Virus record (IMG/VR): IMGVR_UViG_3300008255_000098
Direction: 5' to 3' (one strand)
From: a virus
Taxonomy: Duplodnaviria; Caudoviricetes
Length of the DNA stretch: 64,000 bases
Below are positions 33,021 to 62,220 of this stretch, in pieces. Under the pieces are notes generated by a model. It ran no database searches. It worked only from the letters and a program-made list of their open reading frames with translations, and had not been told where the DNA came from. Position numbers and translations under genes: made by a program. Position 1 is the first letter of the stretch, and every line of letters starts with the position of its first letter.

Positions 33021-33139
33021 CTGTCTGGTTCAGGAACTGAGTCGGACACTAAACAAAAACGGAATAAGGCGTTGCCATTAGGGTAAGTCTGCGACCTCCG
33101 AAACCCATCCCACGACTAAGTTGTAGGTGGGTAGTTCAC
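33021..33139 (+). mobile_element. IS200/IS605-type right end / TnpB omegaRNA-like scaffold, no intact tnpB (copy 1)
   Basis: CTGTCTGGTTCAGGAACTGAGTCGGACACTAAACAAAAACGGAATAAGGCGTTGCCA...GAAACCC-hairpin-GGGTAGTTCAC; nearly identical to 58572-58680. Confidence 0.7.
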
Positions 33140-36595: not shown

Positions 36596-36723
36596 AATAC
36601 CGCCAGTTCTTGGCGGTTACATGTGTGGAGCTATAAATAAGACTTCTTCTTTACAAAAGAAGAAGCACAAAGTAGTGAAACCCGAAGCCTAACCCACCGC
36701 CCTAGCGTGGGTGAGTAGTTCAC
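36596..36723 (+). mobile_element. IS605-type TnpB omegaRNA-like scaffold / right end (copy 2, different subfamily)
   Basis: TACCGCCA..TGGCGGTTACATGTGTGGAG..TAAGAC..hairpin..GAAACCCGAAGCC..ACCCAC/GTGGGT..GTAGTTCAC. Confidence 0.65.
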
Positions 36724-36795
36724 AGGTTATTGGTGTAATGCGTAGCACAATGGATTCCAAACCCATTAGTTAGAGTTCGAGTCTCTAGTAGCCTG
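36724..36795 (+). tRNA. tRNA-Trp(CCA)
   Basis: Cloverleaf; TT-CCA-AA loop; followed by CTA rather than CCA. Confidence 0.88.
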
Positions 36796-40895: not shown

Positions 40896-41195
40896 ATGGA
40901 AACAACACCTAAAGCTGGAAAATTATACAAAGTGGTTGGTCCAGCAGAGTTTGTTCCAAATTTAGAAAGTTACGTCAGTTCATCATTCAAGTATCAATTA
41001 TATCGAATAACAGAAGAAATTCCTATAGGGGAAATTTTATTGTTTGTCGAAATACAACAAAACGTTGTTGAAAACAAATATTTACCTACTCTATTTGGTG
41101 ATAAAATAGAAATACTTCTTTACAAGTTCTTGTATGGGGAAAAAATCATTTATTTGGAGTGTTATAATGACGAAATGTTGCGTCAAGTGGAATAA
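40896..41195 (+). CDS. Hypothetical protein (small beta-barrel paralog family)
   Basis: IPIGEILLFV...YKFLYGEKIIYL. Confidence 0.6.
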   Translation: METTPKAGKLYKVVGPAEFVPNLESYVSSSFKYQLYRITEEIPIGEILLFVEIQQNVVENKYLPTLFGDKIEILLYKFLYGEKIIYLECYNDEMLRQVE

Positions 41196-41207
41196 CATTC
41201 AGCCAAA

Positions 41208-41301
41208 TAAACAAAAACGGAATAAGGTGTTGTCACTAGGTGAGTCTAAGACCTTCGAAACTTATCCACGTCAGCTATACTGTCGTGGGAGGGTAATTCA
41301 C
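41208..41301 (+). mobile_element. Truncated omegaRNA-like scaffold / IS right end (copy 3)
   Basis: AAACAAAAACGGAATAAGGTGTTGTCACTAGGTGAGTCTAAGACCTTCGAAAC...GGGTAATTCAC; homologous to copies 1 and 4. Confidence 0.65.
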
Positions 41302-58515: not shown

Positions 58516-58571
58516 ACTGTTAACCTCCAATATAATTATCTTTGAGCAAAAAACAACAAGATTTAAAAATA

Positions 58572-58680
58572 CTGTCTGGTTCAGGAACTGAGTCGGACAC
58601 TAAACAAAACGGAATAAGGCGTTGCCACCATTAGGGCGAGTCTAAGACCTCCGAAACCCGCCCCTGGGCGGGTAGTTCAC
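58572..58680 (+). mobile_element. IS200/IS605-type right end / TnpB omegaRNA-like scaffold, no intact tnpB (copy 4)
   Basis: Nearly identical to 33021-33139; ends CCCGCCC-CT-GGGCGGG-TAGTTCAC. Confidence 0.7.
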
Positions 58681-58718
58681 AGCCACGTAAATATCGTAAA
58701 CAAATTCTTTGAAATTTT

Positions 58719-59081
58719 GGGGATAAATTGGATTCGACTTGGGAAACAACGGAACAATAACGTTGTAGTGGATGTTCACGCCCACTTAAATATCGTGAAC
58801 AAATATAAATGCAGATAATGCACCACTTGCTCTTGCTGCCTAAAAAACACTAGAGCCGTTGAACGGATAATGTGCTTCGATTACCGGGAAATGTCATTTT
58901 AGAGGCTAGACGAAATTACCATTGGATTGCTTTTGAGTAATTAGTTTAAATTAGTAAAAGTAAGAACCCGCTGTAGATGCTTGTAGCTTAGATGCGGAAA
59001 ATCTAAAATCAGGATAGACAACGTAAATGTTTTTCTAGAAGTTCTTGAGGACGAGGGCATCGAAGCCCTCTATCTCCACCA
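58719..59081 (+). ncRNA. ssrA: tmRNA (SsrA), tag peptide ADNAPLALAA
   Basis: 5' GGGGATAAATTGGATTCGAC pairs with 3' TATCTCC-A-CCA including G3-U70; tag ORF gca..gcc-taa at 58811-58843. Confidence 0.93.
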
Positions 59082-62142: not shown

Positions 62143-62220
62143 GGGGCCTTGGCAGAAAACTGGAAATGCGGTTGACTTTAAATCGACTTTATGCGGGTTC
62201 AATCCCCGCAGGCCCTACCA
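62143..62220 (+). tRNA. tRNA with TTA anticodon (ochre suppressor candidate)
   Basis: GGGGCCT/AGGCCCT acceptor, GTTGA-CT-TTA-AA-TCGAC anticodon arm, GCGGG-TTCAATC-CCCGC T-arm, CCA. Confidence 0.88.

Follow-up and report, generated by a model that had tools for sequence, protein, structure and literature searches.

A decayed IS605-family right end carrying a pseudoknot 1-like flank beside the tmRNA gene of a huge T4-like phage: probably the fossil of an old insertion

In the genome of a large ("huge") T4-like phage, an RNA that resembles the guide RNA of a TnpB nuclease lies just upstream of a tmRNA (ssrA) gene, and the 25 nt in its guide position are nearly identical to part of that gene. Is this a guide maintained against tmRNA genes, or is it the trace of a past event? 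A sequence-only reading of the locus proposed a weapon against the ssrA alleles of rival phages or of the host, with the phage's own gene protected by mismatches; it named as alternatives a TldR-type repressor guide for ssrA and an old insertion into ssrA followed by repair of the gene. Our analysis favours the last of these, based on the register of TTTAT in related genes, an ancestral A at position 18 of the flank and the absence of both partner and target from the data searched. Probably, an element inserted at the TTTAT of pseudoknot 1 (PK1) in a tmRNA copy, a rearrangement left an intact tmRNA downstream, and the element decayed.

The window (the whole stretch of DNA analysed, 64,000 nucleotides of IMG/VR record IMGVR_UViG_3300008255_000098) encodes gp32, a RecA/UvsX homologue, a T4-type terminase and a sigma factor, as identified by Pfam among its 29 largest ORFs. 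It also includes genes for an aminoacyl-tRNA synthetase-like enzyme, a CCA-adding enzyme and an intein-bearing DnaB, and its RNA genes are 30 tRNAs, a UAA-reading tRNA and the tmRNA. The window sequence is found again on a 201-kb ENA contig, where it occupies approximately 95.9-160 kb, and on several JGI and Logan contigs. It is present in DNA runs only, from aquifer and groundwater samples, and the locus had no match among GenBank phages. The spacer between the R2K gene and the tmRNA gene did not differ among six contigs from several samples. The UAA-reading tRNA (anticodon tta) is located at 62143-62220, about 3 kb 3' of the tmRNA, and a tRNA of the same kind (L088:852-924; anticodon tta) was found near the tmRNA of a related contig. 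Eight further tRNA genes form a second cluster, some 25 kb past the end of the window (L117:16453-17953; approximately 184.5-186 kb on the 201-kb contig).

The coordinates of the features are collected in Table 1. We built a covariance model (R1) from the window copies and from copies linked to tnpB. Homology to the 3' ends of tnpB-linked elements, the R1 score and compensatory changes at 6 of 36 pairs of the consensus structure together identify copy 3 as a real TnpB omega-RNA scaffold and as the right end of an IS605-family element, in agreement with the sequence-only reading. The window copies align along the whole scaffold to those of L036, L037 and L042, all of which have tnpB, and Rfam contains no family for the scaffold. 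Copy 3 opens with a 5' hairpin, which a central stem follows; its subterminal hairpin has lost 17 nt relative to the tnpB-linked copies and is followed by GTAGTTCAC. In the IMG/VR locus L001, on the same contig as L036, the scaffold homologue overlaps the 3' end of the TnpB gene, and the L001/L036 TnpB has OrfB_IS605, Cas12f1-like TNB and HTH_OrfB_IS605 domains. The TnpB of L001 (5295-6496, minus strand) is split into ORFs of 126 and 275 aa that overlap by 7 nt, which is a frameshift or an assembly error.

Table 1. Features of the tmRNA locus and related scaffold copies in the window.
Feature	Position	Strand	Basis
tnpB tail remnant, degenerate, last codons (HDRD...KQGL region)	58520..58571	+	nucleotide alignment to the 3' end of L036 tnpB and to window copy 1; tblastn with TnpB residues 233-268
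omega-RNA scaffold, IS605-family right end (copy 3)	58572..58680	+	model R1, 107.7 bits; homologous to tnpB-linked L036, L037, L042
TTCAC, transposon-encoded motif (TEM), exact right boundary	58676..58680	+	element-end comparison; ISGst2 shares the TEM
25-nt flank in guide position, paralogous copy of tmRNA PK1	58681..58705	+	21/25 to 58780-58804; at most 17/25 to related alleles
native tmRNA 5' leader TCTTTGAAATTTT	58706..58718	+	relatives have TTCTTTGA.AT(TTT) directly before tmRNA nucleotide 1
phage tmRNA gene, tag ADNAPLALAA	58719..59081	+	Rfam RF00023, 106.4 bits, full length (model positions 1-374)
PK1 hairpin region: GTTCAC, loop, GTGAAC, then AAAT	58774..58804	+	Rfam; allele comparison
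copy 1, scaffold lacking tnpB, other flank	33021..33139	+	model R1, 133.3 bits
second-subfamily relic, TTCAC end adjoins tRNA-Trp nucleotide 1	36640..36723	+	model R1, 21.8 bits, E 0.007
copy 2, degenerate 5' hairpin, ends GTAATTCAC	41187..41301	+	model R1, 75.5 bits

Only the last ~160 nt of the copy 3 element survive, starting with a degenerate remnant of the tnpB tail about 5 nt past the stop codon of the upstream R2K ATP-grasp gene. No left-end hairpin and no TAM-adjacent left end were found upstream of 58520, and no ORF within 58516-58718. With no left end, tnpA or tnpB, copy 3 is not an autonomous or mobilisable IS605-family element, whether as an IS or as a PATE. The right boundary of the element is fixed by L036, L037 and L042, near-identical tnpB elements that all end in GGTAGTTCAC and whose flanks are unrelated straight after it. 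In addition, around 15 more distant phage elements terminate in TAGTTCA(C/T).

The relic of a second subfamily (36640-36724) terminates in GTAGTTCAC exactly at nucleotide 1 of tRNA-Trp, so that RNase P would cut exactly at the boundary between the two. We considered a general association of intact tnpB elements with tRNA or tmRNA genes and rejected it, as just one of 38 loci is in a tRNA cluster. Two weak matches lie past the end of the window: one to model R1 (19 bits) amid the second tRNA cluster (L117), and a scaffold-like one ending in GTARTTCAY at about 64.9 kb in window coordinates (L114:12582-12683), with genes for a DNA methyltransferase and an M23 peptidase on either side.

At five of five independent left-end junctions of the family (L036, L041, L048, L049 and L054), TTTAT stands 15-20 nt before the left-end hairpin, and the DNA upstream is unrelated from one to the next. 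From these relatives, with 42-100% TnpB identity, the TAM of the family is predicted to be TTTAT; its right-end motif is TTCAC. The same pair, TAM TTTAT and TEM TTCAC, belongs to ISGst2 of Geobacillus stearothermophilus (Meers et al., bioRxiv 10.1101/2023.03.14.532601). In the phage's own tmRNA, TTCAC occupies the TAM position. The similarity between the flank and the tmRNA takes in the element's own TTCAC, which is a TEM and not a TAM, and the own-tmRNA site therefore resembles a donor junction rather than a TAM followed by a target. Judging from these motifs, the own-tmRNA site should not be cut even if it were perfectly matched.

In the tmRNA gene, a match to RF00023 over its full length is accompanied by a tRNA-like domain with G3:U70, by PK1 and by a tag ORF that ends in LAA. 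ARAGORN left it uncalled even with a lowered threshold, despite the Rfam score of 106 bits. Its T-loop (within 59040-59081) reads ATCGAA, compared with TTCGAA, TTCAAT or TTCGACT in relatives, and among the alleles compared a 3' CCA is encoded only here and in L108.

Five related tmRNA loci, found via R2K homologues and a pattern of the tag region, were available for comparison: L019 (= L111), L088, L094, L108 and L112. All five have a strong sigma-70-type promoter (TTTACA/TTCACA/TTAACA-N17-TA.ACT) 25-55 nt upstream of the tmRNA and a short leader, TTCTTTGA.AT, before tmRNA nucleotide 1. The window has only this leader in common with them, and a consensus scan of 58516-58718 found no sigma-70-type promoter. 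Transcription of the tmRNA must start farther upstream or at a non-consensus site. Since the relatives' type of promoter is missing, a present-day transcript may include the relic in a long pre-tmRNA leader. None of the five related loci has the scaffold at the tmRNA gene; relatives with a promoter and no scaffold indicate that the arrangement is lineage-specific. In the more distant relatives L023, L025 and L026, the R2K-tmRNA spacer is 200-290 nt long, GC-rich and apparently structured (L023:4784-4981, L025:4793-5083, L026:4793-5019), with a conserved GAAAACTGAATAGGAAA-like motif and no match to an Rfam family or to model R1; it may be another non-coding RNA. L109 (2351-3103) and L110 (2300-3103) have a LAGLIDADG-type ORF directly 3' of the R2K gene, in the position of the tmRNA in other relatives, and no tmRNA was present in the 1.5 kb examined of either.

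The near match that drew attention to the locus holds up. The last 6 nt of the element plus the 25-nt flank (58675-58705) are identical to 58774-58804 at 27 of 31 positions, with the claimed mismatches at guide positions 1, 2, 7 and 18, and the Rfam alignment of the tmRNA places the matched site in the PK1 region immediately before the tag ORF, as had been stated. Within the window, the flank has a near match at the tmRNA site alone (21/25; runner-up 17/25). When the guide was shuffled 300 times, the best result was a single 20/25, and a local alignment of the 70 nt 5' of the tmRNA with its 5' part scored 23, which none of 500 shuffles equalled. By these shuffle tests the resemblance is far beyond chance.

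Several further similarities were examined and set aside. A loose likeness of the copy 2 flank (AGCCACATGAATA) to the copy 3 flank, suggested by the sequence-only reading, was non-significant in a shuffle test, and copy 2 does not supply a second PK1-like flank. A similarity between upstream DNA and PK1 was not a clade-wide trait, being non-significant in L019, L088, L094, L023, L025 and L026. The flank was also compared with the relatives' promoter as a possible orthologue; that similarity was weak and non-significant, and the likeness to PK1 far stronger. A 7-nt direct repeat, TCTTTGA, stands on either side of the relic and the PK1 patch. It could be taken for a duplication scar, either from the target site or from a leader once present twice. 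We rejected both, since its left copy is better explained as degenerate tnpB codons (GAT TTG AAT...) and about 1% of random window pairs have such a 7-mer in common.

The related alleles bear on the history of the match. They agree with the flank at 11-17 of 25 positions; within the first nine, the four closest differ from it at 2-4, and L112 aligns poorly. The hexamer before the homologous 25 nt is GTTTAT in L088, L108 and L112, GTTTAC in L094 and GTTTAG in L019/L111, and in comparison with these five relatives GTTCAC is peculiar to the window allele. TTTAT therefore precedes the homologous sequence in exact register in three of five related alleles, which makes the tmRNA PK1 a genuine type of target for this transposon family. 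The flank and the phage's own PK1 segment are each other's closest sequences (21/25, against at most 18/25 for any other allele) and have derived bases at positions 14-15 and 24-25 in common. At position 18 the flank keeps the ancestral A, as do four of five relatives, giving GTAAAC, which pairs with GTTTAY; the own segment has G18, which pairs with the C of GTTCAC. Because A18 fits GTTTAY and not GTTCAC, the flank appears to have been copied before the compensatory change in the working gene. The changes unique to the flank relative to its sister segment are at positions 1, 2 and 7, and they lead away from most sampled alleles: at position 7 the flank deviates from all five related alleles, and at positions 1 and 2 from at least three. 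Such changes are better accounted for by drift of a guide no longer in use than by selection to hit a target.

A partner for the scaffold was sought by several routes. A tblastn search of the window with the L001 TnpB recovered the scaffold copies only, and Pfam found no OrfB or TnpB domain in the 29 largest window ORFs. The contig was walked for approximately 7 kb before and 38 kb after the window (~45 kb), with no called gene that has a TnpB domain, and 13 diverse TnpB queries (tblastn) had no match in the downstream stretches. Across ~109 kb of the 201-kb contig, which begin at ~89 kb and extend from about 7 kb before the window to about 102 kb past its start, there is no tnpB or TldR gene, and within the ~109 kb searched the relic has no nuclease at hand that could use it.

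Searches for a target were similarly negative. The guide 20-mer has no exact occurrence in GTDB genomes (one for each of 185,579 species) or in JGI metagenome contigs. A pattern of TTTAT plus a near-exact guide gave one chance match, in an archaeal coding region, and an 18-mer scan of IMG/VR gave 15 matches, all in coding regions and none in a tmRNA. No perfect and no TAM-flanked near-perfect ssrA allele was therefore present in the GTDB species genomes, the JGI metagenome contigs or IMG/VR, and by these searches the locus does not appear to form a working TnpB or TldR guide-target pair, in which a match would adjoin TTTAT. The follow-up that the sequence-only reading had called for, a perfect ssrA match with a common TAM and a cognate TnpB, thus returned no such match in the three collections (11-17/25 in the related alleles) and no such gene in ~109 kb of the contig. 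Its proposal of an RNA-guided weapon against rival or host ssrA is accordingly disfavoured by the TEM in place of a TAM at the own site, the missing tnpB, the missing allele and the lack of the scaffold in relatives; a TldR-type repressor of ssrA loses ground in the same way, with no TldR gene in the ~109 kb and no TAM-flanked target in the three collections.

On the most probable reading, the scaffold is what decay has left of the right end of an IS605-family element like ISGst2 (with TTTAT as TAM and TTCAC as right-end motif), and the 25 nt past it would be a fossil of landing-site DNA, namely PK1 of a tmRNA copy or allele of the lineage itself, rather than a maintained guide. TnpA would have inserted the element just 3' of GTTTAT, in the 5' strand of the PK1 hairpin, joining TTCAC to the PK1 sequence. 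A local duplication or rearrangement would then have placed a complete tmRNA 38 nt downstream of the junction, although the duplication may have preceded the insertion. The left end, tnpB and the upstream tmRNA fragment would have been deleted, like those of the other relics of this genome, and the working tmRNA would later have changed from GTTTAY...GTAAAC to GTTCAC...GTGAAC. The junction and the allele states can be read from the sequences themselves; we infer the order and the mechanism of these rearrangements. As to intermediates, we found no IS-disrupted tmRNA and no tandem 5' duplication, and none of the contigs of four runs joins across an empty site; their loose ends are other copies of the element. 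Counting against the fossil path, no fewer than three events are required (an insertion, a duplication or rearrangement, and a deletion), illegitimate joining is its only account of how the PK1 copy came to adjoin the native leader, and the scaffold still folds well and scores high.

A second route could yield an equally non-functional fossil. The element may first have landed between the R2K gene and the tmRNA promoter, after which a template switch or gene conversion between GTTCAC and GTTYAY overwrote the promoter region with about 25 nt of PK1, with no insertion into PK1 itself. The repeats are 99 nt apart on the same strand and both start with the common hexamer; the best upstream/tmRNA local match in L019 and L088, which is non-significant, pairs the promoter -35 GTTTAC with the PK1 GTTTAG or GTTTAT; and the canonical promoter is missing in the window. 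On the other hand, two template switches are required, the second with very short homology, and, by the A18 argument, PK1 probably read GTTTAY at the time of copying, leaving a microhomology of just 4/6. Canonical TnpA insertion at TTTAT accounts more simply for the exact junction, and we regard the copying route as unlikely, if the most credible of the alternatives. A reading in which the relic and the PK1-like patch were kept as signals for transcription or processing of the tmRNA appears improbable to us. Candidate signals are TTCACA-N15-TAAACA at the junction, or a promoter within the relic from which a long pre-tmRNA would be transcribed. The relatives' promoters stand 25-55 nt upstream of the tmRNA where the consensus scan of the window found none, and the element end creates TTCACA where L094 has TTCACA as its -35. 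However, the spacer of the candidate is 15 nt and its -10 is weak, and the PK1 origin of the patch is left unexplained. These readings and the fossil junction are partly compatible, in that a fossil can be co-transcribed.

The scaffold and flank could also be a working orphan guide RNA, transcribed and perhaps freed when RNase P cleaves at tmRNA nucleotide 1. With it, a trans-supplied TnpB or TldR would cut or repress foreign ssrA genes that have TTTAT at PK1, in rival phages or the host, and the own allele would be safe through TTCAC and the mismatches. Several observations speak for such a guide: the TAM is in exact register in three of five related alleles, the own allele alone has the non-TAM TTCAC with a compensatory change, the scaffold structure is kept, and six contigs from several samples carry the locus unchanged. 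A published analogue is TldR with host fliC (bioRxiv 10.1101/2023.11.30.569447), reportedly a phage RNA-guided repressor of a host gene beside the phage homologue. Against it are the absence of a tnpB-like gene in ~109 kb of the 201-kb contig and of a target allele in the three collections, known alleles that match at no more than 17/25 with TAM-proximal mismatches, the lack of conservation of the element at this locus in relatives, and the terminal hairpin shortened by 17 nt compared with tnpB-linked copies. We give this reading little credence. Its most far-reaching version seems more doubtful still: that the guide RNA is retained and acts in trans with a TnpB-family protein from the rest of the phage, a co-infecting element or the host to attack tmRNA genes with TTTAT at PK1, while the phage's own tmRNA has been immunised by conversion of the TAM into the transposon end motif with a compensatory base change. 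Alleles with TTTAT at PK1 occur in about half of the sampled related phages, and, if true, this version would amount to the kind of warfare known from homing endonucleases, here guided by RNA and fought over a conserved RNA gene.

Copy 3 shares with ISGst2-type elements the TAM/TEM pair, a scaffold that overlaps the tnpB 3' end and the right end, and a guide formed by the DNA flanking the right end. It differs from them in having no left end, tnpA or tnpB, in a flank that is paralogous to a gene 99 nt downstream, and in its location within a huge T4-like phage. PATEs are non-autonomous, protein-less derivatives of IS200/IS605 elements with transposon-end hairpins, some of them with an omega RNA. 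Copy 3 resembles them in having no protein and an end hairpin, but PATEs keep both ends and are mobilisable, whereas copy 3 has lost the left one. A phage-borne TnpB-derived guide RNA reportedly represses host fliC from a position beside a phage homologue of fliC, which is the same logic as the proposed guide against a host gene with the phage homologue adjoining. In the TldR-fliC systems, however, the TldR gene adjoins the guide RNA and the target is real and has a TAM, while the copy 3 locus has neither a protein gene nor a target. Free-standing homing endonucleases of T4-like phages cut the rival alleles of an adjacent conserved gene and leave their own resistant allele intact (intronless homing). 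They are protein enzymes with demonstrated cleavage, in contrast to the resemblance in sequence seen at copy 3.

For scans of genomes, the locus is a cautionary case: near identity between a guide and the gene beside it can stem from a paralogous flank and need not indicate targeting. Asking whether the match reaches into the end motif of the element, that is, whether a TEM or a TAM precedes it, separates a paralogous flank from a target. RNA-guided competition between phages would come into consideration here only once both a partner nuclease and an allele that matches had been identified. Under the fossil reading, copy 3 would be a decayed IS605-family element of an ordinary sort whose history is unusual, and TTTAT, the motif at which the family inserts and cleaves, would form part of the PK1 hairpin in tmRNA genes of this huge-phage clade. 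The flank would then preserve a snapshot of an older tmRNA allele, and one lineage would have replaced TTTAT, together with a compensatory change, by a sequence that the TnpA and TnpB of the family should refuse.
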